This document shows positions 5,080 through 34,481 of a stretch of DNA of 42,216 nucleotides, one piece after another. The translations under genes and the position numbers were made by a program. Position 1 is the stretch's first letter; the number at the start of each line of letters is the position of its first letter. This DNA comes from Caldilineales bacterium (GTDB taxonomy: Bacteria > Chloroflexota > Anaerolineae > JAAEKA01), in NCBI GenBank assembly GCA_021463315.1, contig JAJTXO010000001.1, forward strand, positions 1 to 42,216, given 5' to 3'. Below the pieces are notes generated by a model, which did no database searches, was not told where the DNA came from, and saw nothing but the letters and a program-made list of their open reading frames with translations.

Positions 5080-5082
5080 AGC

Positions 5083-5922: not shown

Positions 5923-5958
5923 GTCTATCTCCTTGTGCTCTGCTCCACTGCGAATGTC

Positions 5959-16260: not shown

Positions 16261-16266
16261 GGCGGC

Positions 16267-19200
16267 TTACCTCGTGTTTTCCTGCAGCAGGATGTCGCGC
16301 ACGACGAGTCGGGCAAACGATAGAAAGTCCTGCACGCCGAGACCGGTCGGCCGATCGCTCAAGTCCCTCGGTTGCTCCTGCAAAAACTGCTGCAAACGAT
16401 CCTGACTGTCGCTCAACACAAGCTTGATATCGGCATCGAGTCGCTGCATCAGTTCAAGGTGGCCGAACCGGTTGCCGGCCCCTTGCGAATTGCCGCCGAT
16501 CACAAACTCCTGCAGGGCTTCTATCAGGGGATCGACCATCTGGAACTGCGACGGCTGCTCAGGCAACCAGTAGGTTGCACTGTCACCCGGGAAGCTCAAG
16601 CCATAGCGGTATTGGTTATCCTGGTAACCGCGCACCACCATGCCACACGCATACGCCTGGGCGAACAAGCGCGCTCGCCCCAGGTCGTGCAAGCCGGCAA
16701 CGAACAGGGGATGGAACAGGCGAGGCGGCTCGCGCAGCTCCCACAGCCGGCTCTCATAGGCCAATGTGTTGACCTCTGCCGCGAATACCTGCACGGGCTC
16801 GGGGCGCGTCTCACCTGACCGGTGATCGGCGCCGCTGATCAGCCCGTGGACACGCAGGTACTCCTCGCTGGTTCGGCTATAGCAGGTCAGTGCAGGCAAG
16901 GGGAGCACGTCGAAGAACGCAATCAGGCCGGCAGCGTAAGGATCGGTTGCCCGAACCTCGCGCACCGTGCCGCCGCCCGGCGCCGAGGCCGTGATACGTC
17001 TGGCAACCTCTTGGCCGGAACGCACCTCTGCACTGGTCCAGAGCAGGCGCTGCAACTGAACGCGCGGGGCCTCGTTGGTCCGGAAGGTCAACGGTGGCTC
17101 GGCATGCGGCCACAGTCGATTGCTTTCACCAGCCACCCTATCGCTGCGCCACAAGTCGTGGTCGAGACGCTCGGCCAGGCGTTCACGCCACACCTCTTGT
17201 CCCAGCGCGTCGGCCAGCTCCTGCAACGCCTGGAGGAAGGCCGTGCCGCCAGAGGCGTCGGAGACGAAAACGCGGTCTTCCCAGTGCCGCACTACCAATT
17301 CCAGCCCACCTTGCTCGCGCGTGCGCCAGAAGATGCGTTCCAGCGCCGGTTCCAGATGTTGAGCGTAAAAGTCCATGTACAGGCTGTTGACCAGATCGTC
17401 GTCGGCAAAGGCCTTGCGAGAGACTACGGCTCGCATCTCCTCACGCGCTCGCTGCAGAGCAGCTTCTGTCGCCACCAAGCGTCGATACACTCCGCCGCTG
17501 TCGGGATCGGCGGCGACGGGCGCACGGAGCAGGAATTCCTCGCCTGCGGTTAGGTTCTGGCGCAGCCGCGCTGTCACAGCGGCGCAATGCTCGGCGCAAG
17601 TCGTGAGCAGATCAGCGAATACCATTTTGCCCGCGCCCACGGTATCGCGATGGCCCTGCACGCGGCGCTTGCCTTCGGCCAGCAATCGCTCGACCTCGGC
17701 CAGGAACTCGCTGGCGTAGCGGATCTTGCCGCTGCGGGCCTCGACCACATCGAAAGTCTCGGGCCGGCCGTTCAAGAGCCGCAGAACGCCCGGCGTCAAC
17801 CATTGTTCGAAGGCCTTGGCGCTTTCGGTCGCATAGCGGTCGCGCCCCTGGTTTTCCGCTGTTTGCATCAGCTCGCGGGCGCGGCGGTCATTGTGCGTCG
17901 ACCAGCCTTGCAGAGCCGTCTCCACCAGCAACGCAACCGGATCGCCAGCTCCTGGTAGAGCTTGCCGCGCCAACAGCGCCGGCGGTTGATCCTTGTGCTC
18001 CAGGTCGTGGCGAACGTCCAGCGATAGCGTGGCGCCATAGGCGTCACTGGCCTGTGCGGCGGCCGCATTGCGCCCTACCAGCCACAACTGCACTAATTCA
18101 CGGGCAAAGCGCACGTTGCAGGCTTTCACCAGATCCGCCAACGGCAGGCGATAAGTGGAGCAGCCTAATCCGCTGACCACGCCAACCTTGCGCTGAATCT
18201 GCTCATCGGCAGTTGTTGTGCGGGTGTTGTCACGATACTGTGCCAGCACACTGCCCGGCTCGCTGGCGCCTTTGTCTATCAGCACTTGCAACGCGTCGGC
18301 CATCATCGGGAATGTTCCTACCTGAGGACGGTACAGACACAGGTCATGTTGGTCACGATGGCCATCGAAGATGAAGCAATCGTCCAGTAGGCTTTGGGTG
18401 AGCATGTGGTCCCCCAGATCATCCCGGCTGCCGGCCCGGTACTGCATGGGGAAGGGGCGATTCTGCGCCAAAAGGAAGCGATTGATCTCGCGCAGGGCTG
18501 CCAGGGTATTGACGCGCATCTGCGGCGTGCGTCCGACCTCGGCGAAAGGATCCTCGGTAGCCAACAGCGCACTGACCGTAGCGCCTTTCAGTCCGGCGCG
18601 CTGGGCTGCCAGCCGCGCCAGATAGGCGACATCGGCCAGAGCCCCGCTGCCGAAGCCGCCGCCCAGCGACCCCACGATCAAAATCTGCGCGTGGTCAGCG
18701 CGGGCGACGGCTTGCAGCGCGCTCGACAGTTGGCGCCAGAGCTTGGACGCCTGCTCCCCCTGCTGAATATCACGAAATACCACAGCACGACCGATCGGCC
18801 GTCGTTGCCCTGTGCTCTGCCGAGCATCCTGCTCGACCGGCCTCAAGCGCCGGCTGTAGTCTTGGGCAGGGAACCAGCCGGCCATCTCTGATTCCTGTCC
18901 TGCAACAGCCCGCTGGATTACTGAACCAATGTCCTCGCCCAGCACGAGAACCTCGCTGTCGCTTAGTTGAACGCCGGCGAAGCGCACCGCAACGTTCTGC
19001 CCGCCCGCCCATTCTTCACGGTTGGAGTCCAGACACAAGAGACGCACCGGGCCTTCCAGTCGTCCTGCCGAAGCCATCGACAGGTTATGCTTGAGGTGTG
19101 TGAGCACCCAGCGCCCTGCGCCGCCCAAGCCCAGGACAACTGTTGGGGTCGCTTCCCACTCAACCTTGGGGCCAGCCCAGACATCGAGGAAGGGTGGCGG

Positions 19201-21762
19201 CTCGCGGCCGCCGCTCGGCACAACTGGCATACCCTGCAAACTCTCGGTAGGCAGCCGGCGGCACAACAGCCAGCACAGCAGTAACAATGGCAGCAACGGC
19301 AGCAGCCAGGGCCACAACGCCAGCAGACGGTCACCCAATGGCAACACTTGCTGCGGCGGCCCCCAGGCCGGCGTATGCTCGAAGATGCCGGGCTCGGCTG
19401 CTCCCTGCAACGGGATGGCGGGGCTTGTTGAGCCATCGGCTGCAACCTCAGTGACAAAGATGTCGTAGTTGGGGTCATTGCGCTTGCTGCTGAACGCCAG
19501 AAAACGGCCATCTCGGGACCAGGTTGCCCACGAGTTGCTGACGTTGGTCAATGGTTCGCCAGCCGGCCCATCGTTAGCTGCAATGCGCAAGCGTTCTCCG
19601 CCTTCGGCCGGCACCAGGAACACCTCGGCCTCGGGCGCCGAATAAGTGTCTTGCGATGCCGTGTTGGTGTGGCGGGTGAACGTAAGCCACAGACCGTCGG
19701 GGGAATACGAGGGATAGTAGTTCAGGCCATCGCCGCTCGCTCCCGCCAGAGCCGTTGGCTCGCCGCCTGTGACCGGCACCGTGAAGATATCCGCATCATC
19801 GGTGACATTGAACCCCGACCCGCTTCTGGTTGAGCGCACAAAGGCCAGCGTTTGGCCGTCTGGCGACCAGCCGGGCATAGTCTCGATAACACTGGGATCA
19901 CTGGCGCCCGGTACCAACGTAATCGAGCCGCTGTCAATATCCAGAATCGCGATGTCCTCGTCGTTTTGTGAGAAGGCAAGCTGGTTTCCATCCGGCGACC
20001 AGGCCAGATACGAGGCACGGATATCTGGTGTTTGGACAGTCCGTCCGTCCAGGGTCGTAATCTGCAAGAAGCCGGTGGCTGTGGTGGTGACAGCCGCGAT
20101 CCGGCCGCTGCTGGCAGAAATGGTGTGGCAGCCAACGCAGCCCGCGCTGTTCTGTGCCCGTACCGGTTCTGGCGGCAGACTGCTCAGTGGATCAATGGTA
20201 TAGATGCCTGAGGCTCCGCTTTGCAGACGCCAGAAGTACACCGTTTCGGTCGGCTGACACACCGAGGCGAAGATCTCCCGGCCCAACAAGAAGGCCAGAA
20301 GCAGCGTGTACAGAACCAGCGCCAGACGGCAAAGGCGACAGCCCCATTTGGCGTTGGCCCACCATTCGCCGATGCTGCGTCGCAGCAAGAACGGGATAAG
20401 CAGCCAGAGCAGCAGAGCAAGCAACGGCAGCAACAGCAGGAGCACCCACCGCCAGGAAGACACACAGCTCACTGCCGTGCCAAGGGCCAAGTTGCTGATC
20501 CCGGGCGTGGGTGTAGGCGCTGGAGCCAGTGTTGGCGTCGGCGTAGGCGGTGGGCCGGTGGGAGAGGGTGACGCCGTTGGTGTAGCGGTTGGACCTTGGG
20601 CGATCTGCAACGGCGTGCTGGTGGGGCCAGGCGACACGACCCACGGCCCGCTGGCCAGGTTGCTGTGGATATAGCCGTTGCAGTCGATGCCGGCCATGCC
20701 GCTGAAAAGCTGCACCTGATCCGGGGCTGTAGGCCGCAGCTTGACCTTGTAGGTCAGTTCAATGGACTGATCGCGCATGGCTTCCGGGATATCCCAGACG
20801 ACCTTGTTGCTCTCGATGCGTCCACCCGGCCCTGTCACTCCAGACAGATCAACAAGATTGCCCGGCTCCCAGATATCCTCCAGGTGGAAGTTGCGCGCAA
20901 CCAGATTGACGTCGCCTTCGCTGGCCTGAACGAACAGACGTCGTATCTCTTCAGGCTGAGGATCGGGAAAGAAGTTCTCCGGCGGAACGAGCGCGCTGGC
21001 TTGCTCGGCAGATACCTGATCCACCTCATTGATCACGAGGCTGTTGGCGACCAGGTAGATCGGGATCTCCGCCCCGATTTCGGCCGCTGCTGCTTGCGCG
21101 CCAGCCGTCAAGGGTACGATGTCGTGCAACATAAGCACGATAGCCTGCGCGTTACCTGTCGCCTCCGTCTGCAAATGCTGGGCAGCCAACCGAATCGCCT
21201 GAGCGATATCGGTGTCGCCGCCCACCTGAATGCCGGTCACAGCCGTGCGAAGCTGGTCGAAGTCAGACGTCAGCGCCTGCTCGATGATTGGCACAGGGCC
21301 AGTATCGCCTACCGTACTGGTGACGATAGCAACCCGAGATTGGGCAGGTGGCGCTGTGAGCTGCTCATACACCGGCTGTTCAAGGTTGTCAAGCAGTTGC
21401 AACGAGAATGTGACGGTCTGCGACCAGTTGATCCTTCCGGCGCTGGAAGAGACATCGTAGATCAGGACAGTATCAACCGGACGGCCCGGTATGCCCAGAC
21501 ATTCGGGCAGGTTCTGACCCACCAGCCTGATGGTGACCAGGGTTTCCTGATCCCTGCTCAGGCCTGGCGGGTCGAGAGTACGGTCGATGGCGACACTGGC
21601 TGGCACGGGACCAGGAACTTGAGGAGCGCGAGGGATTGGCGTTTCCTGCGCTGCCTGGACGATCGGCGTTGCAATCACATACGATGCAACTGCCAGCACG
21701 ATGAGCAACGACAGGCACGTCAAAATGAAGACGGGTCTTTTGGAAAAGCTGGACTGGGTCAT
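16267..21762 (-). CDS. 1831-aa four-TM fusion protein: extracytoplasmic vWA + PT linker, extracytoplasmic PD40/TolB-like beta-propeller, cytoplasmic tubulin/FtsZ-like GTPase domain with long C-terminal extension
   Basis: Signal anchor aa 12-32. vWA MIDAS DVSSS (21442-21456). PT linker aa 380-420. TM2 aa 437-460, Arg/Lys loop, TM3 aa 477-494. Four PD40-type repeats (LAWSPDGNQLAF, PGWSPDGQTLAF, PSYSPDGLWLTF, ATWSRDGRFLAF). TM4 aa 814-835. GLGGAG (19114-19131). Tubulin-signature-like GGGFGSG (18643-18663) in ILIVGSLGGGFGSGALADVAYL. GGAG lies 8 nt upstream of the ATG. Confidence 0.85.
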   Translation of the reverse strand: MTQSSFSKRPVFILTCLSLLIVLAVASYVIATPIVQAAQETPIPRAPQVPGPVPASVAIDRTLDPPGLSRDQETLVTIRLVGQNLPECLGIPGRPVDTVLIYDVSSSAGRINWSQTVTFSLQLLDNLEQPVYEQLTAPPAQSRVAIVTSTVGDTGPVPIIEQALTSDFDQLRTAVTGIQVGGDTDIAQAIRLAAQHLQTEATGNAQAIVLMLHDIVPLTAGAQAAAAEIGAEIPIYLVANSLVINEVDQVSAEQASALVPPENFFPDPQPEEIRRLFVQASEGDVNLVARNFHLEDIWEPGNLVDLSGVTGPGGRIESNKVVWDIPEAMRDQSIELTYKVKLRPTAPDQVQLFSGMAGIDCNGYIHSNLASGPWVVSPGPTSTPLQIAQGPTATPTASPSPTGPPPTPTPTLAPAPTPTPGISNLALGTAVSCVSSWRWVLLLLLPLLALLLWLLIPFLLRRSIGEWWANAKWGCRLCRLALVLYTLLLAFLLGREIFASVCQPTETVYFWRLQSGASGIYTIDPLSSLPPEPVRAQNSAGCVGCHTISASSGRIAAVTTTATGFLQITTLDGRTVQTPDIRASYLAWSPDGNQLAFSQNDEDIAILDIDSGSITLVPGASDPSVIETMPGWSPDGQTLAFVRSTRSGSGFNVTDDADIFTVPVTGGEPTALAGASGDGLNYYPSYSPDGLWLTFTRHTNTASQDTYSAPEAEVFLVPAEGGERLRIAANDGPAGEPLTNVSNSWATWSRDGRFLAFSSKRNDPNYDIFVTEVAADGSTSPAIPLQGAAEPGIFEHTPAWGPPQQVLPLGDRLLALWPWLLPLLPLLLLCWLLCRRLPTESLQGMPVVPSGGREPPPFLDVWAGPKVEWEATPTVVLGLGGAGRWVLTHLKHNLSMASAGRLEGPVRLLCLDSNREEWAGGQNVAVRFAGVQLSDSEVLVLGEDIGSVIQRAVAGQESEMAGWFPAQDYSRRLRPVEQDARQSTGQRRPIGRAVVFRDIQQGEQASKLWRQLSSALQAVARADHAQILIVGSLGGGFGSGALADVAYLARLAAQRAGLKGATVSALLATEDPFAEVGRTPQMRVNTLAALREINRFLLAQNRPFPMQYRAGSRDDLGDHMLTQSLLDDCFIFDGHRDQHDLCLYRPQVGTFPMMADALQVLIDKGASEPGSVLAQYRDNTRTTTADEQIQRKVGVVSGLGCSTYRLPLADLVKACNVRFARELVQLWLVGRNAAAAQASDAYGATLSLDVRHDLEHKDQPPALLARQALPGAGDPVALLVETALQGWSTHNDRRARELMQTAENQGRDRYATESAKAFEQWLTPGVLRLLNGRPETFDVVEARSGKIRYASEFLAEVERLLAEGKRRVQGHRDTVGAGKMVFADLLTTCAEHCAAVTARLRQNLTAGEEFLLRAPVAADPDSGGVYRRLVATEAALQRAREEMRAVVSRKAFADDDLVNSLYMDFYAQHLEPALERIFWRTREQGGLELVVRHWEDRVFVSDASGGTAFLQALQELADALGQEVWRERLAERLDHDLWRSDRVAGESNRLWPHAEPPLTFRTNEAPRVQLQRLLWTSAEVRSGQEVARRITASAPGGGTVREVRATDPYAAGLIAFFDVLPLPALTCYSRTSEEYLRVHGLISGADHRSGETRPEPVQVFAAEVNTLAYESRLWELREPPRLFHPLFVAGLHDLGRARLFAQAYACGMVVRGYQDNQYRYGLSFPGDSATYWLPEQPSQFQMVDPLIEALQEFVIGGNSQGAGNRFGHLELMQRLDADIKLVLSDSQDRLQQFLQEQPRDLSDRPTGLGVQDFLSFARLVVRDILLQENTR

Positions 21763-21850
21763 ATAGCTATCTCCGTCTCTGGCTCGCTGATCCTGGACTG
21801 CATAGATAGTTCCAGACTGGTCTTCACGCTAGGCCTTCGGGGTTCAACTT

Positions 21851-21880
21851 GCCGGGCTCTGGCTCAAACCAGAGCCCGGC
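21851..21880 (-). promoter_or_regulatory. Perfect 12-bp GC-rich intercistronic stem-loop between the two tubulin-like genes
   Basis: GCCGGGCTCTGG (21851-21862), loop CTCAAA, CCAGAGCCCGGC (21869-21880). On the mRNA strand it starts 7 nt after the TGA at 21888-21890. It is followed by AAGTTGAACC, so there is no U-tract. Confidence 0.6.
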
Positions 21881-21887
21881 AGCAAAC

Positions 21888-24800
21888 TCAACGCACGCCA
21901 CGAGATGCTTCCAGTAGGCTCACAATCGCTTCCTGGACGCTCTTGATCTCATCTTCCAAGGCCAGCCAGAACACAGTGGCGACATCACGAATCTGTACGG
22001 AGTTGTTCGTGTCCTTGAGATCTTTGAGGACATCTTCTTGTCTGGCTTTTAAGATATCCCTTTCACCCAAGAGCCTTCTGGCGCGTTCCTGGTCGGCAGG
22101 CGGCAGATTGACCAGGTGCGTTTGGATCGGCTTGTCAATGGTCAATTCCTGATCGAGTCGACGAGACACAGCCATGGTCTTGGCGTCCTCGATGGCGCGT
22201 TGCATTCGATCGTACGGAATGCGCTCCTCGATCTCGTAATGGGCGTCTTTGCCGATGTATTGGAACGTCTCCAACGCTTGCAAGAGGCTTGGCGTGCCCT
22301 GTTCGGGCAGCGTCAGATAGATCTTCGACTCGCGCTGCTCGCCAAACAACCGCTGAGAGATGTTCTCTTCAGGCAGCTTGAGGGCGTAGTAATGCACACG
22401 ACTGCCGCCTGTCTCATCCCCGCCGCGGCCGACTACTCCATAGACCCATGCTCGCACGAACATGCGAAACTGCTCGATGTTCTCCAGTTGCAGCACAACT
22501 TCGTTGTGCAGCTCACGCGCCGGCACGTTGAGTTCCCTGGGAATGCGAGCTTCGAACTTTGCGGCATTAACTTCTGCCGGAAACAGGTGGAGGGTTTCAC
22601 GGCCCAGCACACCCCGGGCGTCAGCATTTTCAACTCGCTGAGCGTAGTTAAGGTAAGCGGGACGGGCGCCAGTATAGGACTGAACACTGTCCAAAGGCAC
22701 TAGATCGAGCGTGTAAATTAGACGGCATGCGAACCGATCAGCCGAAGAAATAACTTCATTGAGGACGCCCGTGGCGCCACTGATTTTCACCAACGCCGTC
22801 TTGACGCCGTCCAAGTAGATACGCTCCTGACCGTCCCTGCCATGGGAGACATGGAAGTAATTGGCAGGCGTAGTACCCGTGCCGCCAGTTATCATCAGCA
22901 ACGGGCCGCCGTTGTCCACAAGCTCCTTTGCCAGCGCCTCGGACCGGGGATACTTGATCATCAGGTACTTCAGAATCGACTCCTGTTGCCAAACGTCGCG
23001 GAATATCTCGCGGCACCGACTCAATAGAGTCTCGAGGTTGCGCTCCTGGCCGCGACCATCGCTCTCTGCCTGTTGATCAGCGATAGCCAGGGTCAGGCTG
23101 GTGACGTCCTTCCCGCCGCTGCGTCGTTTCTCGATACCCCAGGTCAAGTCGTTGAGCACCGCAGCCAAGCCATCCTGCAGCTCCTGGGTGTACTTGTTGT
23201 ACAAGCCATCGTAGTACTCTTGGCGGTCCGCCGGTTCAGGTAGCACACGCCGCACTTTGACCTCGCCTTGCTCCTGAAGGATGTCGCTCAACTTCTTCTG
23301 GCCCCTGATCGTCCAACCATACAAGCCGTCATAGCCCAGGGCCAGGATCTGGCTCCATGAATCGGCCGACTCCTTGAGGCCGCGCACGTAGTCCTGCATC
23401 TGGCGCGCGCTCTGTCGGAGTACAGCCTCCGTCAGATCTACCTTCGCCATCCCAATTAGCTCTTCCTCAGCCTGCAGGTAGGCCTTCTGGGAGCCACCCC
23501 ACCCAAGGATGCCGCCCGGCTTCCGTTCCATCTCCTGGCGAGCAGACTGCACATTTCCCAACAAGGAAACGCGGGTGCCCAGTTGCTCGCGCAACTCATG
23601 TGTGGCGTCCAACGCAAGGATGAAGCGTCCGAGCAGTAGGTCCAGGCCGTCCAGCATGTCGCGTGCATAGGCCAGCTTACCCGTTTTGGACTCGACAGGC
23701 TTGCGCTGTGAGCTGCCATTCAGCACATTGATTATCTCCAATCGTAAAGCATCCCGAAACCGGTCGACATGCTTAGCGGAGTAGAGCTCTAGCGCCTGCC
23801 GGTATTTACCACCGCTGCGTTGGCCGGTGCGCGAATCCTCACGGCCCAAATGCTCCGCCTTGTAGCGCTCCACGCCCGGCTGAATGCGCACAACAGCATC
23901 CTGCGGCTTTTCTCCTGCGAGTTTCGGCGGAACCTCAGCCGACAACCGGCTGGACAGCTCGACTTGCACTTGTTGGCGAATGGCGAGCACATCAGGGGTG
24001 TCGCCGGTTGGATCGAGAACCGTCTCCCACTCCTCAGGATTGCGAGCTGCCAGCTCTTGGAAGAGCGCTTGATTCTGCAGGCTATAGCGAGAGGCTATGC
24101 GCAAGATCTCCCCGGGAAGCAGGGTCATCATGATCTTCTCGTCGCTGGTAAGCGATACCACTTCCCCGGTTTGCATGAATTGCATGGCTGCGTCGCGACC
24201 ACGGCTGCCATCGCCAGCCTCCAGGTTGCGATCTGCGGCCAATCTCGTGGGGTAACCGTCCTCATCCAGCGTCGCAGGCGTCGTGAGCGCCTCCAATATC
24301 TGCAACGTCAATCGATGCGCCAGCCAATCGACAATCTGTCGCATAGGCAAGCTCATCGTATAGGTTCCAATGGCGCTGTCAAAGGCTGTCGAGCTGGTGA
24401 CATCCTCCGATCGACCGGCGGCGGTGATGACATTCTGGTTGTGCTGTCCATACTTGTCCTCAGGGTCGTCCAGCATGGCAACAACGGCGTCGCCGATGGT
24501 CGCCGTCACACCAAACTTCGGAAGAACCTGGGTCAAGGGATTGTTGGCTCGCTGTCCATCGATGTGATAGAGCGAGTCGAAAAGTTTGGTCCTGATTTCC
24601 GACCGCCATACACCACCTTTGCCGGAGGGCTGGTAGTACATCGGATATCCGGTGTCCCAGACGAAGTCCACCATGAAACGGCGATTCTCGCGCATGGCTG
24701 CATATGAGCGTGCTCGCATCGAGGTGTCAATGCCAGTGGGGATGGCGCTGAACGCCTCGGGCAGGACGAGAAAGCCGCGCATGGTGACTTTCTGATCGTT

Positions 24801-25364
24801 CTGATCTTCTTTGGCGATCATGCGCACCAGGTAGGCGAGATCGACGAACATCCCGGCTCCAGTGCCACCAGCCACGGAGCTTACGAGATAGACGTCGAGA
24901 TTCTTGATCTGGCCGGTGTTGCGGATGTCGGTGAGTGCGTTGTTGATCAGCTTCTTGATATTCGACAGTGCCGGAGCAGATACGTCACGGAAGACGGCCA
25001 AACGGCCAAACTGACGCAACTGACCGGCGCCCCGCTGCAAGGTGAAGGAAGCGCGAGGCAGCGTCTTGAGATAGGTCTCGGCCTGGAACCAGGAAGCGAC
25101 GTGAGGGTGCTTGTTGCGACGCACCTCTACGGCGTAGTCGTAGACGTCGCCGCCAATCCAGAAATATTCTCCTGGCTCCAGGGTCACGCCTCGTAGCGTG
25201 TTGTTAGAGTTGTCCATTGGTTCCTGATCCTGAACAGTATCAAGCGCCAGCAAGCGAACGTTAGGCGGTAGCTTGCGCTGTTCACCCCCCGTCAGTTGCG
25301 CTTTGATGTGTTGCAAGGTCAGTACTCCTGTACCGCCGAGTCCAATGATGAGCCCTGCCTTCAT
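21888..25364 (-). CDS. Soluble tubulin/FtsZ-like GTPase (Tubulin_2-type) with about 700-aa helical C-terminal extension (1158 aa)
   Basis: N-terminal MKAGLIIGLGGTGVLTL (G-x-G-G-x-G). Canonical tubulin signature GGTGAG (24852-24869) in YLVSSVAGGTGAGMFVDLAYL. No TM. GAGAGGAA lies 6 nt upstream of the ATG. Confidence 0.8.
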   Translation of the reverse strand: MKAGLIIGLGGTGVLTLQHIKAQLTGGEQRKLPPNVRLLALDTVQDQEPMDNSNNTLRGVTLEPGEYFWIGGDVYDYAVEVRRNKHPHVASWFQAETYLKTLPRASFTLQRGAGQLRQFGRLAVFRDVSAPALSNIKKLINNALTDIRNTGQIKNLDVYLVSSVAGGTGAGMFVDLAYLVRMIAKEDQNDQKVTMRGFLVLPEAFSAIPTGIDTSMRARSYAAMRENRRFMVDFVWDTGYPMYYQPSGKGGVWRSEIRTKLFDSLYHIDGQRANNPLTQVLPKFGVTATIGDAVVAMLDDPEDKYGQHNQNVITAAGRSEDVTSSTAFDSAIGTYTMSLPMRQIVDWLAHRLTLQILEALTTPATLDEDGYPTRLAADRNLEAGDGSRGRDAAMQFMQTGEVVSLTSDEKIMMTLLPGEILRIASRYSLQNQALFQELAARNPEEWETVLDPTGDTPDVLAIRQQVQVELSSRLSAEVPPKLAGEKPQDAVVRIQPGVERYKAEHLGREDSRTGQRSGGKYRQALELYSAKHVDRFRDALRLEIINVLNGSSQRKPVESKTGKLAYARDMLDGLDLLLGRFILALDATHELREQLGTRVSLLGNVQSARQEMERKPGGILGWGGSQKAYLQAEEELIGMAKVDLTEAVLRQSARQMQDYVRGLKESADSWSQILALGYDGLYGWTIRGQKKLSDILQEQGEVKVRRVLPEPADRQEYYDGLYNKYTQELQDGLAAVLNDLTWGIEKRRSGGKDVTSLTLAIADQQAESDGRGQERNLETLLSRCREIFRDVWQQESILKYLMIKYPRSEALAKELVDNGGPLLMITGGTGTTPANYFHVSHGRDGQERIYLDGVKTALVKISGATGVLNEVISSADRFACRLIYTLDLVPLDSVQSYTGARPAYLNYAQRVENADARGVLGRETLHLFPAEVNAAKFEARIPRELNVPARELHNEVVLQLENIEQFRMFVRAWVYGVVGRGGDETGGSRVHYYALKLPEENISQRLFGEQRESKIYLTLPEQGTPSLLQALETFQYIGKDAHYEIEERIPYDRMQRAIEDAKTMAVSRRLDQELTIDKPIQTHLVNLPPADQERARRLLGERDILKARQEDVLKDLKDTNNSVQIRDVATVFWLALEDEIKSVQEAIVSLLEASRGVR

Positions 25365-25428
25365 GGTCTGTTCCTCTCAATCTGCTGATTATGGCCAGTT
25401 GCCACTGGTGTCACAGTTGTCGTTGCTG

Positions 25429-28347
25429 TTACCAATTGATCGAGCTCGGCGCGCCGCCGCCTCGTTTGTCCGTGTAGGTCAGGAAGAACCCTGGGTTGAG
25501 CGGCGCACGAGCGCCGTTGGTCAGGTCGCGCACCAAAGGAGCCCCCTTGGTCTTGGTCACTTTCACCTTGACGCCGTTCTTGGTTCCGGTGACGCGCACT
25601 GATTTCACGCCAGCCAATGGCGCATTGGGGGTCCATTTCAGAGTGTGAACGCCGCGGCCGTCCAAATTGATCGGCGCTCCAAGCGTCCGTTCATTGCTGT
25701 CGATGATCGTCAACACGCCCGTCGCCTTCTGCTTGAAAAAGTGGTTGCTAGCAAAAGACCATCCGACAAACAGCAAGCACCCAAGGATGAGCGCAAACAC
25801 GGCATAGGTCACCGGCAGCAAGCGGTTTGGAATGCGCACCACGCTGAGCGATTGTGGTTGTTCGTCCCAGATGTAGGCTGGCTTGAGCGGCGCATTGCCC
25901 ACCACATTGATCAGATAGGTGTCGCGACCGGTCAGCCCATCGCCGAAGGCCCGCCACCGACCGGTTTCGCCGGCCGGTTCGATGGTAACTTCGCCGCTGC
26001 GATCTTGCCCCTGGCTGTCGCTGATCGACACCGTGAACGGTGGCCTCGCCGGATCCGTCAATGCCAGAGCCGGATCGATGGGCTGGCCGTCGCCAAGTAG
26101 CTCCACGCGGACATCCAGCGGGTTCTTGAGGAAAGGCAGGATGCCGTTGTACGCCAGCTTGTCTCCATTCTTGGGCGAGACGACCGCCAACGACAGTAGT
26201 GTGGTCGGCGTGACCTGGAATGTTCCCACCTGGTCATCGAAGACGATGCGAGGAGAATCGCCGGTAGTGTTGAAGCGTGCTGTGACGTCTACAGAGCCCG
26301 ACTTCTGAGGGCGAACGGTGGCCGTCCACATTCCGTCGCCCTGAGACTGAAGCGCGTGGGCGCCCTCTTCTGCCCCCGTCAATATGATCTCACCTGCCAA
26401 GGTTGGGGCTGGATTGGCGCCAGTCACAGGCCTGCCATTGCGATCCACGAGTTGCAGTTGAACATCAACGGCGCCGTACTGCGGCTGAGGATCATCCAAT
26501 CCGACCAATTGCACTGCCAGCGGCGCCACGGTGAGCGTACCTAGAGACTGATCAAGCGCACCAGAGCCAGCGCCCGATCCAGCTTGGTTAGTAGTAAGGG
26601 CAATGGGGTGGTCGCCAGGTTCCAACGAAACGACTGAGGCAAGCAACGAACCGTCTTGCTGGGCCTGCAACGGAAACGTCAGCCTGCCTTGGGATTCATC
26701 TAGAGCGAGATATAGTTGACTGCCCAGGGTCGTAAAGACCTCGGGTGCCACCCGTCTGCCCTGATCGTCGGTGATCTCGATCTTGACCTCAGAAGGGACC
26801 AGCACCGTGGTGGCGGGGGCTTCTACGAGCCGCGGGCGCGTGGTGCTGACCGTGAATTCGCCTTTGTCCTCGTTCAACAACTCAATGGGGTTGCCGTTGG
26901 GATCCTGAGTTGTGGCGGTGATACCGATGCGATACGTACCTGGCTCGGCTGGCGTGAACGGCGCCGTGTAGATGCCTTGTTCGTCTTGAACGAGTGGGAT
27001 TACCGCTTCACCCGAAGGCTGAGTGATCCGGGCTTCGACATCAAGACGATACTTGGGATCAGCATAACGGGGCAAGGCCGAACCGGCATAGCCACTGAGT
27101 TTTAGTTGAATGGGTGCTGGCACGTACTGCAACTGCTGTCCTGTGGGACTCAGCAGTTGGGCCACCATTTGCACTTCCTCACGGTAGATTTTCGGGTCTA
27201 GTCTGGCGTCAGGTGGACAAACGATGTCCCAGAAACCAGGCTCAGGATTGGGGATCTTGATGGTTTCGATGACCGAGTTCGATCCTGTGACTGTAGCTTT
27301 GCTGGGATCATCCAGATTCAGGTCGACATTGTTCACCCGGAGGCCGATCCGATCCTGGGAATTGACCTTGTGAACGTTGAACCTGATCAACTGAAGGTAG
27401 GGTGGAATGACCTGGGGACCACATTCAGCAGGAAAACCACCGGGTCCCATACCCATATCTCGCCGCAATTCCTCAAGGTACTGCTGAAGCGTTGCACCAG
27501 CCTGTTCATTTCTTTCGACCAATTGCGCGTTGTTGCTGGTGACTTGGTTCCAGTACCGCACCACTGGGCCCCATTGATCCCGATCGCTGTCATTCATACC
27601 GACAATAAAAATACGATACTCAGGGTAGGGGAAGTTGTCACGAACATAGGGTATCAGATCTGCCATGTAGCGATCCAAAGGAATCGGCGTCCGGGGTGTC
27701 GGCGTCGCGGTTGCCCCATCCGAGGACGGAGGGGGCGACTGGACCGTGGTTTCGACGGGTGGCAGGACATAAGGTATACCATCTGTCAGCATGATGATAG
27801 CGCGCAGCCGATTACCCGGCAGACCCTCAGCATCCATAGCGTCGAAGATTTGCCTCGCATGCTCGAATGCCAGCAGTTGATTGGTATTGCCCAGGTTGCG
27901 CTGACCGAAGCTCTCGGCGCTCACTTGTTGCTGTAATTCATCAAGCTTGGGACCCCATTCCTGATCGGACCTGGGATCGATGGTTATTATCGGCGGATCA
28001 AGACGCGACTCCACTGTGTCGCCAAAGTCCAGCAAAGCCACACGGAAATCATTCTCCAGATCCAGACCATAGGTTAGGCTGGCGCTTCCCAGCCAGTCCA
28101 TAATGAACTTGGCTGCCTCGAAACGCAATTCGTTGCTGTCGTTGACTGCGGGATGATCGGAGCTGCCATAGTTGAGCCCACCCATCGAGCCGCTTTGGTC
28201 CACGAGAATTACCAAGTCCAAGCCATCGTAGGGACGCTCGCCGCTCTGCCCAAGGACAGCAGCAGGCATGACCAACGCGGCAATGAGCACTAGAACCACA
28301 AGTATCAGTGAGATACCATGCTGAATGTGGCGGAAAGCATGATGCAT
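25429..28347 (-). CDS. Extracytoplasmic vWA-domain protein with multiple Ig-like beta-sandwich repeats, C-terminal TM anchor and about 110-aa cytoplasmic tail (972 aa)
   Basis: Signal anchor ISLILVVLVLIAALVMPAAVL. MIDAS DQSGS (28186-28200) in DLVILVDQSGSMGG. IIMLTDGIP strand. Repeated beta-rich modules. TM VTYAVFALILGCLLFVGWSF near the C-terminus. AGGAGG lies 10 nt upstream of the ATG. Confidence 0.85.
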   Translation of the reverse strand: MHHAFRHIQHGISLILVVLVLIAALVMPAAVLGQSGERPYDGLDLVILVDQSGSMGGLNYGSSDHPAVNDSNELRFEAAKFIMDWLGSASLTYGLDLENDFRVALLDFGDTVESRLDPPIITIDPRSDQEWGPKLDELQQQVSAESFGQRNLGNTNQLLAFEHARQIFDAMDAEGLPGNRLRAIIMLTDGIPYVLPPVETTVQSPPPSSDGATATPTPRTPIPLDRYMADLIPYVRDNFPYPEYRIFIVGMNDSDRDQWGPVVRYWNQVTSNNAQLVERNEQAGATLQQYLEELRRDMGMGPGGFPAECGPQVIPPYLQLIRFNVHKVNSQDRIGLRVNNVDLNLDDPSKATVTGSNSVIETIKIPNPEPGFWDIVCPPDARLDPKIYREEVQMVAQLLSPTGQQLQYVPAPIQLKLSGYAGSALPRYADPKYRLDVEARITQPSGEAVIPLVQDEQGIYTAPFTPAEPGTYRIGITATTQDPNGNPIELLNEDKGEFTVSTTRPRLVEAPATTVLVPSEVKIEITDDQGRRVAPEVFTTLGSQLYLALDESQGRLTFPLQAQQDGSLLASVVSLEPGDHPIALTTNQAGSGAGSGALDQSLGTLTVAPLAVQLVGLDDPQPQYGAVDVQLQLVDRNGRPVTGANPAPTLAGEIILTGAEEGAHALQSQGDGMWTATVRPQKSGSVDVTARFNTTGDSPRIVFDDQVGTFQVTPTTLLSLAVVSPKNGDKLAYNGILPFLKNPLDVRVELLGDGQPIDPALALTDPARPPFTVSISDSQGQDRSGEVTIEPAGETGRWRAFGDGLTGRDTYLINVVGNAPLKPAYIWDEQPQSLSVVRIPNRLLPVTYAVFALILGCLLFVGWSFASNHFFKQKATGVLTIIDSNERTLGAPINLDGRGVHTLKWTPNAPLAGVKSVRVTGTKNGVKVKVTKTKGAPLVRDLTNGARAPLNPGFFLTYTDKRGGGAPSSINW

Positions 28348-28370
28348 TATCGGATTTCCTCCTTGGGATT

Positions 28371-29282
28371 CTACTTCCCTAGGACAAGACGATCGGCAAG
28401 AAACTTCGGATAGCCGCTGTCAAGCATCAGATCCTGAACTGAGGCGATATCATAAGGAATCCGCCGAAATGAGACATGCAAGTGATCTTGATCAAGAGCG
28501 AGTATGACATAAGAAGCCCGGGCATCATGGTCGCGTGGCTGACCAATGCTGCCAGGACAAAGCACAATCCGCTGGCTGTCAAGCTCAGTGAGTTCGATGA
28601 TCACCTCACTGCGTTCCGTGATAGCGCCGTTCTTGGGCGACCGTGACTCGTTCCAAGTGTTGCCATCGGCGCGATGCATAAGCGTTGGGACATGGGTATG
28701 ACCCACTACAAGCAGACGGGTCACATCAGCGCCCAGATAACGGTCAATGTTTCGGAAAGCACTGTTGGCTTGGATCGAGTCACGCAAGTAGGAAGCCTCA
28801 CCTTTAACATTCACCATGCTATCTGGACCTTCTATGACAGTGCCATGAGCAATCACCACGCCAGACACTGGCGCCGACCAAGTCGGCGCTGCTGCCATCC
28901 GTTGATACCAGCTTCGCTCCTCATAGCCCGCCAACTCCCAGGCCTGAATCTGCAGGGCATCGGCTGAACCCATGTTGCCAATCAAATCCCTGAGATCATC
29001 CGGCGTATCGTCAGCCTTGCAGCTCATGTTGCCGCGCAAGCAGTGGACGAGGCCCAGGTCGTGGTTTCCGGCCAGCCATGGCTCACCTTCGCCAAGCAGA
29101 TCGTCCAAGCGCTGCAAGCATTGCCTTGGCTGCGGACCATAGCCAACGGCATCGCCGAGAAACCAACAGGCATCGATCCGCTGCGAAGCAACCTGGCATG
29201 TTGCCTGGATGTCGTCAAGAACCGCCTCCAAGGCAACTAAGTTGGCGTGGACGTCCGACAGCAATGCTACTCGCATGATCAT
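28371..29282 (-). CDS. Calcineurin-like metallophosphoesterase (303 aa)
   Basis: Motifs in order: LLSDVHAN (D-x-H), FLGDAVGYG (GD), AGNHD (GNHD/E), VIAHG, VVGHTHVP (GH-x-H), PGSIGQPRD. I place the start at the ATG at 29280-29282, which overlaps the upstream stop (ATGA). The ATG at 29276 is an alternative. The ORF-track N-extension lies inside the upstream gene. Confidence 0.85.
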   Translation of the reverse strand: MIMRVALLSDVHANLVALEAVLDDIQATCQVASQRIDACWFLGDAVGYGPQPRQCLQRLDDLLGEGEPWLAGNHDLGLVHCLRGNMSCKADDTPDDLRDLIGNMGSADALQIQAWELAGYEERSWYQRMAAAPTWSAPVSGVVIAHGTVIEGPDSMVNVKGEASYLRDSIQANSAFRNIDRYLGADVTRLLVVGHTHVPTLMHRADGNTWNESRSPKNGAITERSEVIIELTELDSQRIVLCPGSIGQPRDHDARASYVILALDQDHLHVSFRRIPYDIASVQDLMLDSGYPKFLADRLVLGK

Positions 29283-32200
29283 CTCCCGGAACAGTTTTCT
29301 TGCGCCGCGGGCATGATGCCATCCCAGCCTTGGTATTGGGGAGCAATCTTTTTGGCGGCGCCAATCAACTGGTTCAACTCGGCACACAGATCTCGACGCT
29401 GTTGTGAGTTTGGACCCTTAAAACCGAACTTTTTCTTGCGCAACTCATCGAGAGTTGCGCCTATTGCCTCCAAATAGCTGTAGAAGTTCGCCTCATCTCT
29501 GGGCAGAAGTTCCAATAACGGGAGCGTGTCATCCGAGCGAGGTCCTTCTAACAGTTCGATATCACGTTGGGCAGATCCCAAGGCCTCCTGGCGCGCGGTA
29601 AAAATCTGTTGAACTCGCTTGCTCAAGGCCACCTTCGGATCCGCGACAGCCAGGAAAGGGCTGCCGGTGGAGTCCCGTGGATCAAGCAGGTAGCGCTGAC
29701 ACCGTCTCAGAGACCATCTGTTATCCAAGCTGGCAACCTCACTGCTATCGGTACCTAGAGCATCCTGGATGATTTTCTTCGCCTCACCGAACATTCCCTG
29801 CTGCCAGCGATTGCGACAGACGGGTTCCCCATGCTGTCTCCAGCCTAACCGTTTGCAGTCCGGCGGGATCGGGGACTCTGAGCGCCAGCCCTGTAAACCC
29901 ATTGGCTTTTGCCACAGGTCTACCAACTGCCATTGTGCGAGCCGCGTTTCTGTCAAGCCTTTGACGTTGTCGCTTGTTGACTTTCCAACAAGAGGAAGAT
30001 TATCATCCAACCAGGGATCATAGATGCGCACGTTGCGAATGACTTCGAACTGGCCATCTGCATCCAGCTTCTCAATCTCCTGGGTCAATTTCACGATTAC
30101 TTCAAAGTTCTCATCATGCACCGCCTGCTGCAAGCGCTTGAGGGTCGTTGCGATTTCGGCGCGACTTCTTTGCGCCTCAGCCAATTCCTTTTTCAGCGCC
30201 TCGACAGTGATGTGCTGGCTGAAAGGCAAGTCCAACGCGTTGATATCGCCCAGGACATCTTTTATTCGCTCGAAGGGGTCATCATCGCCGTTGGGTTGAG
30301 AGCCGAAGGATTGCTGCCCACGGCTCGGCGGCACCCATTCGCCCGATGAGAACGCCTTGCCCCGAGCGCCGCGCAGGCGCGCCCGCCCTTGCTGCACCAG
30401 CCGCTCCAAATGCTTCAGATCCTTGATCCTGCGATTGATCTTCTCCACACAGGCCTTGGCGCTCTGCTGGCCCTCAGCTTGCCCAAGGCTCAGCGCCTGT
30501 TGATCCAATAACGCGCTGATGTCAAAGGCCCGACTTTGCAGTTGTTCGGCATGTTCGATCTGAATTTGCAGCGATCGGTGTGGTTCAACTGATTTGAGAC
30601 GACCGTCTGCATCCGGAATCTCGCTGGGGCCTGTAAAATCCTCCATAAGCGCTTCAGTGTCGATCTCCAATTGCCGCACGCTGGCGCCTGCACGACTGAT
30701 CTCGGTGCGTGCTTCGGGCGCCTGTGGATCCAATGTCATGATCTTGACAGCCAGGGCCCATCTGCCTGGATCGCTGTCAGGCAGTTCCTTCATCCGAGCC
30801 GAGAGTCGCCGGATCAAATCTTGTTTGCAGTCAGAAAACCATCGATCAATCTCCAAGGCTTTGTCAGGCTGTCTCTGACGAAGATCGCTCACGGCTTTGC
30901 TTGCGGACCTATACTGAACGGCGTGATTGTCCTCACGTAGCGCAGCCTGCACGATGATCTGGGTATCGTGAATATCCTTCAGCTTCTCGGTCGTTGCGCG
31001 CAGTTGATCGATGCTCGGTTGGTTAGCGCCACTCTGCGCCTGATCATAGCCTTGCGCCGTATCCAGATACTGAAGCGCTTCATCATAGCGGTCTCGGTCT
31101 ACAGACAATCGAGCCAACTCCAGCCATGCCTCTGCGTCGTCCTGATACTCGAGAACGAACTTCAGCCAGACGCTTTGCGCATCGGCTAAGCCCTGATCTC
31201 TCTGTTCCTTTTGCCTGTTGCGATTGGTGCTGGCTTGCTGCCTGGTCCGATCACGCGCTATGGAACGGCGTTTCTGCTGCAGGTCGTCGTCGTTGGGGGT
31301 AAGCTGAATGGCCTTATCCATCAGTTCCTTGGCCGTCTCGAGCGATGGCCCCCCTGCCTTCCGAGCGATAGCTGCTGCGCGCGCGTAGATGCCCGGCATG
31401 TTCTTCTGTTGCCACTCCTCCCCTGCGACCGGCGCCAACCGCTTCAAGTCGTCCAATCGCTGCTCGATCTGCTCCAACGGGGCCACCTTGGGGTTGTTCT
31501 TGATGGCGTTCAACTGTCCTTCCAGCCGTTTCTGCCAGGCGCGCTCATAAATATGGGCCTGCGCCCGAATCTTCACACCAAGTTCGCCCGGCTGATCGAA
31601 CCATGGCTTGAGCAATTCGATTGCCTTGCCAAAGTCCTGCACTGCCGCGGCTCGCGCTGCGTCCTCCAAGGAACGAGTGGCCTGATCGGTCTTCGATTTG
31701 GCGTTTTGTATTTCATCTCGGTATTCCTGAGCGCTCGCCGCATCCTCGGCCTTCCTCGTGACAAGTTCCTGCAGAATAGGTTCGGCCTCATCGCGGAAAC
31801 CGCCTCCCATATTGAAGAGCCGTTGAGCGATCAAGAACTGGCGTCTCAAATCCAACCGTTCGCGCGTGTCCTTTAGATCGTCAGGTTCGCCGACTTGCTG
31901 TTGCAGACGACGCAGCCGCTCTATCCGCTGCTCCAACTCGACTTGAGTCAGGCTGCGGTAGCCTTCCTCGATTTCCTGCAACGCGGCGCGCAGATCCTTG
32001 CGCGCCCGAATGCTGTCCTGCCAACCAGCAAGAACCGGAAAGAAACTGGCGAGATCTCCCACCGATCGTTGGATCGAACGCAGCCGTTCTTCGGCGCGTG
32101 CAGGTTCGCTCTCGATCAGGCGTTCCATCTCATCGGCTTGCGCGCTAATCTCGCGCCCCAACGTCTGTAGACGAGTAGCGCGCTGCACCAAACTGTCAGC

Positions 32201-33760: not shown

Positions 33761-33964
33761 GCAATATCTCCAGGGTCTTCGGTTGGCAGAAGGCGCAATA
33801 CCGGTGGTTGCGAATTCCACCTGCCATCACTCGGCAAGACAGTCGAGCGTTGGGAAATCTTTCAACGGCGGGACTGAATCGTGAGGTACAAATCCAACGT
33901 CATTTTGTGCCCGTGACAATGGTGTGCTAGATTCACCTGTCGGCGCTGACCACAACCAAGTCCT

Positions 33965-34399
33965 TCATCCCACCACCCTCCGCACCGCCTCCAGCGCATC
34001 CTCGCCGTCGGTGTAGACCACCGGCTCCGGCCTGGACGCGAAGGGCCAGGCGCTGCGCGCCAGGTCGTTTACCCCGGACTGGTGGACGATGAAGGTGGCG
34101 CCGGCGCTGTGGGTCTGAACGAGGAACTCCTGCAGACGGGGGTCGTTCTGCAGCCGGCTCAAGCCTGTCGTCCCGCACGGGATGATCACCGAGGATGCAG
34201 TGTGCGCCAGCGGCAGCGCTTGCTCCAGCGCCAGATCGGGCACCAGCGTCAACCCATAGGCGCCGGAGGAGGGCTGGCCGGCCAGACTGACCAGCTTGAC
34301 CCGCAGTCCTGCCTTGCGGAACTCAGCCACGAAGAACGCTGCCAGCGCCTCGTCGAACCGATCGGCCCACAGTACAAAGGCGGTTTTCTCGTACGGCAT
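33965..34399 (-). CDS. DJ-1/PfpI-like (class I glutamine amidotransferase-like fold) protein, probably non-catalytic (144 aa)
   Basis: The pattern FVLWADRFDEALAAFFVAEFRKAGLRVKLVS...SSVIIPCGTTG...PRLQEFL...ATFIVHQSG resembles the DJ-1/PfpI strand-helix order, but the nucleophile-elbow Cys position is not conserved. The ATG at 34399 is preferred to the TTG at 34411. Confidence 0.5.
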   Translation of the reverse strand: MPYEKTAFVLWADRFDEALAAFFVAEFRKAGLRVKLVSLAGQPSSGAYGLTLVPDLALEQALPLAHTASSVIIPCGTTGLSRLQNDPRLQEFLVQTHSAGATFIVHQSGVNDLARSAWPFASRPEPVVYTDGEDALEAVRRVVG

Positions 34400-34481
34400 A
34401 GACCCTACCAAAAATGCTGGATAAATTACGAACTATAATTCACAGCTAGTATACACGAATTTTGCTCTCCTGCGCTCAACT

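Follow-up and report, generated by a model that had tools for sequence, protein, structure and literature searches.

Introduction

FtsZl1 is a family of FtsZ-like proteins that was defined by sequence, with members in most bacterial phyla including Chloroflexus (Makarova and Koonin, 2010). Its members combine an FtsZ-like domain at the N-terminus, a long coiled-coil or helical region and a C-terminal globular domain within ∼1000–1200 aa. Their operons carry vWA proteins, kinases and membrane proteins, and a role in membrane remodelling was proposed. In the same study nothing beyond helix H5 could be aligned, T6-H7 included, and the question of filaments was left open, with a novel mechanism and no filament at all both considered possible (Makarova and Koonin, 2010). 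No experimental work on any FtsZl1/Tubulin_2 member was found in the literature searched. Here, we describe two adjacent genes in a 42,216-nt stretch of DNA from a Caldilineales bacterium of the Chloroflexota (contig JAJTXO010000001.1), hereafter called the window. Gene A encodes a soluble member of this family and gene B a paralog fused to a membrane protein; the two form a conserved tandem in which the nucleotide loops are preserved on one side and decay on the other. The likeness to FtsZl1 lies in strong PF13809 matches, the same architecture, an operon with vWA and kinase genes, and the presence of Chloroflexi members. The difference is that a soluble-plus-fused pair and a one-sided loss of the GTP loops go unmentioned in the 2010 description.

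A second related description is that of the Firmicute “GAP1-N2” GTPase-centric conflict systems, which contain two tubulin/coiled-coil genes and two vWA genes; related systems are enriched in multicellular bacteria, including Chloroflexi, and have a kinase/phosphatase theme (Kaur, Burroughs, Iyer and Aravind, 2020). The present locus resembles them in its two tubulin/coiled-coil genes, in its two vWA proteins, one with transmembrane segments and a predicted extracellular vWA domain, and in the kinase/phosphatase theme. It differs in that the phosphatase is calcineurin-like rather than PP2C and that the vWA membrane protein and the tubulin module form one fused protein. No DO-GTPase or GAP1 gene was found in the operon by Pfam, NCBIfam, PADLOC or a GxxxxGK[ST] scan, which very divergent versions could escape, and the sole P-loop protein in the operon was an NB-ARC/AAA-like ATPase (Table 1). 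As these defining genes were not detected, the locus was not filed among the GAP1-N2 conflict systems. Neither A nor B had a match in PADLOC or NCBIfam, and the pair is therefore not assignable to a named defence system.

Tubulin heterodimers offer a further comparison. GTP is bound by both subunits of alpha/beta-tubulin, whose asymmetry resides in the T7 residue. The locus shares with alpha/beta-tubulin and BtubA/B the presence of two co-encoded tubulin-fold paralogs, the nucleotide chemistry of one partner being altered. Here, in contrast to alpha/beta-tubulin, the partner differs in its own phosphate-binding loops, and in many lineages these loops are destroyed. The locus also departs from both systems by the lack of a canonical T7, by the extra ∼750-aa stalk and C-terminal domains and by one partner being an integral membrane protein, and the heterodimer is putative.

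Results

Family Membership and Predicted Fold of the Two Proteins

Both proteins belong to the FtsZl1 family, which is Tubulin_2 (PF13809) in Pfam. Against a gathering cut-off of 27 bits, the domain was matched at aa 5–357 of A (149.3 bits, E = 2.2e-43) and at aa 875–1225 of B (106 bits, E = 3.2e-30), scores that are far beyond chance. The translation of gene A opens with MKAGLIIGLGGTG, a GAGAGGA stretch lies 7–13 nt 5′ of its start, and no transmembrane segment was found by a 19-residue hydropathy scan of the whole protein. Gene B follows 125 nt downstream on the same strand. Its product begins with a transmembrane segment, followed by a vWA domain (aa 97–239) with the metal ion-dependent adhesion site (MIDAS) DVSSS, two transmembrane segments, a PD40 propeller (aa ∼575–775), a further transmembrane segment and the FtsZl1 module (aa ∼872–1831). 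The four hydrophobic segments span aa 7–38, 433–465, 474–499 and 812–834, and the simplest topology would have the vWA domain and the propeller facing outwards and the tubulin-like module facing the cytoplasm.

A full-length search with A returned 173 relatives, most of them ∼1150–1250 aa long, and PF13809 was present in all those listed. Family lengths clustered at 1100–1250 aa and the hosts were mostly metagenome-assembled genomes of Anaerolineae and other Chloroflexota; a few homologs are already named “tubulin-like domain-containing protein” at NCBI. The FtsZl1/Tubulin_2 family as a whole is large: at E ≤ 1e-3, an exhaustive scan with aa 1–420 reached 3318 clusters of 50% identity, and at E ≤ 1e-30 it reached 190.

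Structural models were obtained with AlphaFold2 for A (predicted local distance difference test (pLDDT) 93, predicted template-modelling score (pTM) 0.84, 104 homologs) and for aa 845–1831 of B (pLDDT 87.5, pTM 0.89), and the FtsZl1 architecture was seen in A and in this cytoplasmic part of B. When the model of A was compared with the PDB by Foldseek, the best 50 matches were all CetZ, FtsZ, alpha/beta/gamma-tubulin or TubZ (E 9.6e-5 to 5e-3, prob 1.00, 340–400 aligned columns, TMt 0.31–0.45). They were led by CetZ1 (4b46, E 9.6e-5) and included S. aureus FtsZ and phage TubZ. The best 50 matches of B were also FtsZ, CetZ, TubZ or tubulin, except for a weak match to Drp1 at rank 48; over A and B, the superfamily matches had prob 0.89–1.00 and TMt 0.28–0.49. 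On these models, A and B are both predicted to have the tubulin/FtsZ fold.

Sequence profiles (full-length and N-domain) gave no significant FtsZ or tubulin match in the PDB, the best FtsZ chain having E 2.1 and covering T1 and T4 only. Aligning the family profiles by hhalign with the sequence of E. coli FtsZ covered S1-T1-H1-S2 only, at a probability of 2%. Because sequence profiles fail to reach solved chains, the link to FtsZ/tubulin is structural and motif-level, and because hhalign stops at S2, the residue mapping of T6, H7 and T7 follows from motif reading and model secondary structure. FtsZ, CetZ and TubZ are nevertheless the best Foldseek matches, and A has equivalents of T1, T3 and T4. 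The differences from them are a low identity (10–16%), a ∼70-aa insert behind S2 in the nucleotide-binding subdomain of the A model, the lack of a T7 motif and the absence of any Pfam match to FtsZ_C or Tubulin_C in A or B.

The T1-like loop of A was kept in every A-type relative with an aligned N-terminus (94% of rows, the remainder being gaps). By eye, the GAGxxxxxGR spacing of its T3-like loop equals that of E. coli FtsZ, which we take to be GAGANPEVGR. The AGGTGAG of A (aa 165–171) fits the tubulin signature, which we take to be [SAG]-G-G-T-G-[SA]-G (PROSITE PS00227), and B with GGGFGSG fails at the Thr. In A, these loops are followed by a T5 region (LPEAF, aa 201–205) and by S6 with an acid behind it (YHID, D269). 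Behind the H7-like helix, the model of A shows strand, helix, strands, helix, strand and strand at aa ∼328–412. Judged by secondary-structure order and alignment length, this suggests the beta-alpha-beta-alpha-beta-beta order of the FtsZ C-terminal subdomain. The H7-like helix and this second subdomain would extend the 2010 description of FtsZl1. The later strands are absent from the model of B, where confidence is low: four short strands behind H9 in A are missing at aa ∼1230–1274 of B (17952–18084, pLDDT 50–66), so that the fused copy may carry a reduced second tubulin subdomain.

The helical stalk of A matches the “extended coiled-coil” described for FtsZl1, and Foldseek gave no PDB match to the stalk and the alpha/beta region that was better than E ∼5e-3. 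The first-pass annotation of this DNA had described A as a soluble protein opening with the same residues and carrying GGTGAG, next to a tubulin-like paralog with a more degenerate GGGFGSG. The open reading frame, translation and hydropathy scan agree with this for A, the GGGFGSG was found in B, and the models and the alignments presented below bear out the tubulin-like nature and the paralogy of the two. The annotation had also called the C-terminal extensions of both proteins very large and of unknown fold. Their size was correctly noted and is that of the normal FtsZl1/Tubulin_2 architecture; the second part did not hold, as the extensions are homologous and confidently predicted to form a long helical stalk and an alpha/beta domain. 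The annotation did not identify the proteins as members of the described FtsZl1/Tubulin_2 family.

Duplication of the Whole Module

Comparison of A and B by BLASTP gave two separate alignments, one in the ∼360-aa GTPase-like region (A 5–358, B 875–1225, 26% identity, E 1e-24) and one near the C-terminus (A 843–1052, B 1581–1778, 27% identity, E 6e-13). A profile of the N-domains of A-type proteins matched B at E 9e-69, and the C-domain profile matched B too. Matches at both ends demonstrate that the whole ∼1000-aa module was duplicated, beyond the GTPase-like part. Consistently, the module of B is predicted by AlphaFold2 to have the same parts as A, namely a tubulin/FtsZ-fold domain, a helical stalk and an alpha/beta C-domain. 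The C-domains of A and B have in common the motif H-x-F-P-A-E-V-N-A-x-x-[YF]-E-x-R (A aa 926–941; B aa 1658–1673, 16744–16791), whose pair of Glu residues (E931 and E938 in A) was invariant in both paralogs over more than 100 sequences. The motif looks like a functional site.

Conservation of the Tandem Pair

Three homologs of A with 48%, 39% and 32% identity keep the gene order of the window (loci L001, L002 and L004). The shared order comprises a ∼1400–1500-aa protein, a metallophosphoesterase, a vWA/filamin protein, the soluble Tubulin_2 protein and a giant vWA/CAP/PD40-Tubulin_2 fusion, and a kinase-like gene comes next after the fusion in one of the three.

The comparison was widened by a scan of one genome per species, in which open reading frames were called and our own hidden Markov models of the N- and C-domains were applied. 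This gave 77 further loci, mostly from Chloroflexota. B-type proteins were taken from loci adjoining A-types; a word-indexed search with the cytoplasmic part of B gave 7 proteins. The tandem was counted over the 38 A-type genes that had 4.5 kb or more of DNA behind them, and a B-type gene was next on the same strand in 31 of them, usually 0–270 nt away. The Tubulin_2 domain of these downstream partners begins at aa 335–1430, behind 2–5 predicted transmembrane segments. Three of the seven exceptions had a downstream protein that matched the C-domain profile only. The A-types that kept the tandem order are only ∼27–47% identical between lineages.

In one Anaerolineales lineage (L027, L028, L033, L055, L062) the partner is itself soluble: ∼950–990 aa long, with neither a transmembrane segment nor an N-terminal extension, and with the G-box wholly lost (e.g., AEPxSIG). 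Given that such a soluble degenerate partner exists, the constant element is the pairing of an active with a degenerate copy, not the membrane fusion, and the pairing is older or more general than the fusion. A different arrangement was seen at four loci, where two consecutive membrane-fused B-types lie behind A (L013 at 13841 and 19248, L014 at 13815 and 19199, L051 and L058); both of these B-types carry degenerate loops of the SDDVGSG type.

A neighbour-joining tree was built from 359 N-domain columns. All 31 B-types fell into one clade with no A-type within it, which points to a single origin of the B-types. The A and B subtrees mirrored each other (Pearson r 0.73 over 26 pairs), and B-types evolve faster, with a mean distance of 0.81 against 0.65 for A-types. 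The locus thus has the co-encoded and co-inherited paralogs of the heterodimer systems, as seen in the 31 of 38 tandems, the single B clade and the mirrored subtrees.

One-Sided Decay of the Nucleotide Loops

In tubulin and FtsZ, the phosphates are bound by the T1, T3 and T4 loops. Residue conservation was compared between the A-types and the B-types (Table 2), and the nucleotide loops are kept almost without exception in A-types and are lost lineage by lineage in B-types. The T4 loop of the B-types ranges from GGTGSG (L001) through GGFGSG (the window and L007) and GGFSSA or GGLGSG to SDDVGSG, GEALGAG, FDDGSSG and AEPxSIG. Residues that resemble a fold core are kept at 74–100% in both paralogs (W92, R121, D175, R225, E226, R229, D299, G333 and P340), with R121, D175, R225, E226 and R229 at 87–100%.

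Table 2. Conservation of nucleotide-loop and associated residues in A-type and B-type proteins (residue numbers of A).
Residue	Loop	A-types	B-types
G11	T1	94%	35%
D42		100%	61%
T43		100%	39%
G112	T3	98%	55%
G114	T3	98%	19%
S163		100%	39%
G166	T4	100%	42%
G167	T4	98%	39%
T168	T4	98%	10%
G169	T4	100%	58%
L201	T5	100%	26%
F205	T5	100%	39%
D269		98%	55%
N311		100%	39%

Family-wide, GGTG[AS]G was present in 231 of the 249 proteins with an N-terminal domain, and GGFGSG in 10 of the 11 listed transmembrane-bearing proteins with a late domain, three of which are the window's own cluster. The recurrence of GGFGSG indicates that the change from Thr to Phe is a fixed state of a subclade and not noise. 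The B of the window departs from the tubulin signature in T4 solely by this change. It is more degenerate mainly through its other loops, in which GGTG became GGAG (T1), GAG became STG (T3) and LPEAF became TEDPF (T5), and it retains D912, D1133, D1163 and N1179. The window's B is intermediate in its loop decay. The asymmetry that the first-pass annotation had envisaged by analogy with tubulin heterodimers was observed, in that the fused copy alone loses nucleotide-loop residues.

Since the phosphate loops T1, T3 and T4 have been replaced in the B-types of many lineages, these B-types most likely bind nucleotide poorly or not at all. The arrangement in which both partners bind GTP and one GTP is hydrolysed is not seen here, as loops such as SDDVGSG, GEALGAG and AEPxSIG have probably lost binding.

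The T7 loop has the form NxDxxD in FtsZ and GxxNxD..E in tubulin. Per-column conservation showed a motif of the type NxDxx[DE] in neither paralog, and the region of A at 24426–24512 is a candidate T7 equivalent without the canonical NxDxxD. Behind the H7-like helix, D299 is the sole invariant acid (100% in A-types, 84% acidic in B-types, D1163 in the window's B). The comparison suggested in the same annotation, of whether T7-like acids are retained in only one paralog, does not discriminate between the two. In the A-types D299 and the invariant N311 lie 12 residues apart, N311 within a predicted helix. N311 is kept in A-types only, though the window's B has the Asn (N1179). It is speculation that D299, kept in B while the phosphate loops are lost, could be a residue that B donates to the GTP site of A. 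R225, E226 and R229 were also considered as a T7 equivalent and rejected; they sit in the helix before S6 (the H5 position), are kept in both paralogs and more likely form a salt-bridge network of the fold core.

A Conserved Stem-Loop Behind Gene A

The A-B spacer of 125 nt contains a perfect 13-bp stem-loop, 7 nt after the stop codon of A. The fold of the spacer had a minimum free energy of −49.4 kcal/mol (z −2.6), and the stem-loop is single-copy in the window. For its relatives, helices were taken from the minimum free energy fold, with z-scores, of at most the first 100 nt after the A stop in 22 A-B spacers. A helix of 9 bp or more without a break was found in 20 of the 22, with a median of 13 bp and a median z of −3.45; same-length coding windows had a mean of 6.8 bp and a z of −0.2. 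The position and presence of the stem-loop are conserved, the sequences are unrelated between loci, and most lack a T-run.

A consensus terminator/promoter scan of 15000–34500 gave nothing above shuffles, and it missed the hairpin because no T-run follows. The label of an intrinsic terminator was not applied for these reasons. A repeated REP-like (repetitive extragenic palindromic) element was also rejected, as the hairpin is single-copy in the window and its sequence differs between loci. From its structure, the stem-loop may be a conserved intercistronic attenuator or a 3′ stabiliser of the mRNA that raises A over B, and A in excess would fit many soluble subunits per membrane anchor.

Gene Neighbourhood

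Every gene from ∼39.3 kb to ∼2 kb of the window lies on the minus strand. The features of the locus are listed in Table 1. The FtsZl1 type of operon is recognisable in the vWA-Ig-transmembrane gene upstream of A, the vWA domain in B and the kinase-like gene downstream.

Table 1. Features of the locus, with positions in the window.
Feature	Position	Strand	Basis
Gene A, soluble FtsZl1/Tubulin_2 protein, 1158 aa	21888–25364	−	Open reading frame with ATG start
A tubulin/FtsZ-like GTPase region, aa 1–415	24120–25364	−	Model secondary-structure order; Foldseek alignments; relatives align to query residue ∼400–420
A T1-like loop GLGGTG, aa 8–13	25326–25343	−	Conservation; aligns to FtsZ VIGVGGGG
A T3-like loop GAGQLRQFGR, aa 112–121	25002–25031	−	G112 98%, G114 98%, R117/G120/R121 100% (A-types)
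A T4/tubulin signature S-V-A-GGTGAG, aa 163–171	24852–24878	−	Coordinates; GGTGAG is aa 166–171, 24852–24869
A H7-like helix, aa 285–299 (D292, invariant D299), and loop/helix with invariant N311	24426–24512	−	Model helices; per-column conservation
A long helical stalk, aa 416–700 (helices of up to 51 residues)	23265–24119	−	Model, pLDDT mostly >90
A alpha/beta C-terminal region, aa 701–1158	21891–23264	−	Model; homologous to B aa 1581–1778, E 6e-13
A C-domain motif HLFPAEVNAAKFEARI, aa 926–941, invariant E931 and E938	22542–22589	−	Alignments
Stem-loop, perfect 13 bp, in the A-B spacer	21851–21880	−	Fold
Gene B, membrane-fused paralog, 1831 aa	16267–21762	−	Pfam; transmembrane scan; MIDAS; AlphaFold2 model
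B T1 GLGGAG	19114–19131	−	
B T3 STGQRRPIGR	18787–18816	−	
B degenerate T4 S-L-G-GGFGSG, aa 1032–1040 (GGGFGSG aa 1034–1040, 18643–18663)	18643–18669	−	Motif reading
B T5 TEDPF	18544–18558	−	
FHA-vWA membrane protein	37090–39294	−	
C39-like cysteine peptidase	36149–37072	−	
NB-ARC/AAA-like (STAND-like) ATPase, P-loop GIGGAGKT	34545–35954	−	
1513-aa TPR protein	29279–33820	−	
Calcineurin-like metallophosphoesterase, intact DxH/GD/GNHD/GHxH	28371–29387	−	Pfam, motifs
vWA protein: signal/transmembrane segment, vWA (MIDAS DQSGS), filamin/Ig-like repeats, transmembrane segment, ∼100-aa cytoplasmic tail	25429–28347	−	Pfam, transmembrane segments, MIDAS
Atypical protein-kinase-like protein directly after B	15220–16260	−	Weak Pfam matches, motif scan

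Each of the three vWA domains has an intact MIDAS motif (DxSxS). The kinase-like protein matches the N-lobe of kinases only and is devoid of HRD and DFG, having ASDRK...DWN instead. Farther downstream lie several helical or membrane proteins without a family match. The neighbours that recur in the related loci are the vWA-Ig-transmembrane protein (38), the kinase-like protein (28) and the metallophosphoesterase (14), the last of which occupies the same place in L001, L002 and L004.

Some further observations were made on the surroundings. Homologs of the ATPase occur near A-types in L016, L020 and L024, on the opposite strand. An open reading frame of L006 (1197, plus strand) was matched by both the kinase-like protein and a 982-aa protein encoded at 5959–8907 on the minus strand of the window, and the latter may contain a second, more divergent kinase-like domain. 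The G+C content is 0.49 at 4001–6000, where small membrane-protein genes without a family match are found, against 0.55–0.64 elsewhere in the operon.

Discussion

The conserved tandem, the single clade of B-types, the one-sided loss of the loops and the stem-loop make a heteromeric pair plausible. The reading that we find most likely, at roughly even odds, is one in which a soluble, GTP-competent A and a membrane-anchored, nucleotide-degenerate B form a heteromeric module within an envelope-spanning vWA/kinase/phosphatase system. In such a two-paralog FtsZl1 module, A would be the nucleotide-competent soluble subunit and B its obligate partner, a membrane-resident anchor, receptor or nucleator. 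Binding of soluble A to B would involve the domains that both possess (tubulin-like, stalk and/or C-terminal), and GTP would be bound and hydrolysed only or mainly on A, which would power assembly or a cycle of conformations at the membrane. The stem-loop behind the stop codon of A would permit an excess of A over B, and the secreted vWA-Ig protein, the atypical kinase, the metallophosphoesterase and the FHA-vWA protein would tie the pair to the envelope and to phospho-regulation. The finding as established here comprises family membership, fold, paralogy, the conserved tandem, the single origin of B, asymmetric motif decay and the conserved stem-loop. It is a well-supported genomic pattern rather than a mechanism; physical contact between A and B, their stoichiometry and any polymer are putative.

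Several points weigh against a heteromeric module. At four of the 38 loci no partner was seen over ∼9.5 kb, and other FtsZl1 subfamilies, devoid of the C-domain motif, occur as single copies; these partnerless loci and single-copy subfamilies indicate that A-type proteins can work alone. The clade of fast-evolving B-types could be exaggerated by long-branch attraction. The window's B holds most of the T1 and T4 glycines and may still bind nucleotide. The template-modelling scores to FtsZ and tubulin are modest, the role of the stem-loop was deduced from its structure alone, and tubulin-style longitudinal assembly is uncertain, because the canonical T7 motif is absent and T6-H7 could not be aligned in 2010.

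One alternative is a true co-polymer, the strong form of what the first-pass annotation had put forward, in which A and B would meet in longitudinal head-to-tail contacts as in alpha/beta-tubulin or BtubA/B, B would act as a membrane seed or cap and A would polymerise in a GTP-dependent manner. This would make use of the tubulin/FtsZ fold of both proteins, of T1, T3 and T4 in A with its FtsZ-order subdomain behind the H7-like helix, and of the D299 acid, which is retained in both even where the nucleotide loops of B are lost; the stem-loop likewise suggests that A is made in excess. However, we regard it as unlikely, given that there is no conserved NxDxx[DE] motif, that Pfam finds neither FtsZ_C nor Tubulin_C and that the model of B lacks the small strands behind H9, in a part of low confidence. 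A stalk and C-domain of this size could stand in the way of lateral or longitudinal packing, and the authors of the family had themselves allowed for filaments of a novel mechanism or for none at all (Makarova and Koonin, 2010).

Another alternative is a GTPase switch that does not polymerise, in which GTP would gate a dimerisation or a conformational change on the stalk, and A and B would form a heterodimer mainly through the stalk and C-domain. Dynamin-like/GBP proteins are analogous to such a switch in logic and not homologous to it. The long helical stalk and the C-domain with its two invariant Glu residues, common to A and B, are consistent with this, as is the absence of a canonical T7. 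Active/pseudo-enzyme pairs are, moreover, common among switch NTPases, and the stalk-length Foldseek alignment of B with Drp1 is weak and suggestive only (E 0.06, prob 0.08). Set against this, the Drp1 match is not significant, a tubulin fold acting as a non-polymerising switch has no known structural or biochemical precedent, and nothing found here separates the switch from the co-polymer. The switch likewise seems improbable to us.

A more elaborate proposal, which we find rather improbable, sees in the pair a transmembrane “ligand-to-polymer” device, with B as a pseudo-tubulin receptor embedded in the membrane. The binding of a ligand to the extracellular vWA domain or propeller of B would lead its cytoplasmic tubulin-fold domain to nucleate or cap GTP-driven A filaments. 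If true, bacteria would have an analogue of the templated nucleation that a non-hydrolysing tubulin paralog provides, and the principle of an active/inactive tubulin heterodimer would have evolved independently outside the lineage of tubulin and BtubA/B.

That A and B are independent or redundant paralogs, neighbouring duplicates with separate roles whose adjacency reflects operon inheritance, is very unlikely: the partnerless loci, the loci with two B-types and the single-copy subfamilies would fit it, but the tandem order is kept across such diverged lineages, the duplication has a single origin with mirrored subtrees, and the decay is confined to the nucleotide loops of B while the fold core and the C-domain motif are kept, a pattern that fits a non-catalytic partner under retention and not a redundant copy.

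The FtsZl1/Tubulin_2 family itself was known; we found no earlier description of the conserved active/degenerate pair, of the fusion to a membrane sensor or of the intercistronic stem-loop. If A and B assemble into the heteromeric module proposed here, they would provide a second independent case of the active/inactive paralog logic of alpha/beta-tubulin and a tubulin-fold motor tied to extracellular vWA sensing. If they form no polymer, the tubulin fold would be used as a switch that makes no filament. In either case, the Chloroflexota subfamily presents a co-inherited pair with strictly conserved GTP loops on one side and decaying ones on the other, and this provides a testable handle on a large, unstudied branch of the tubulin superfamily.

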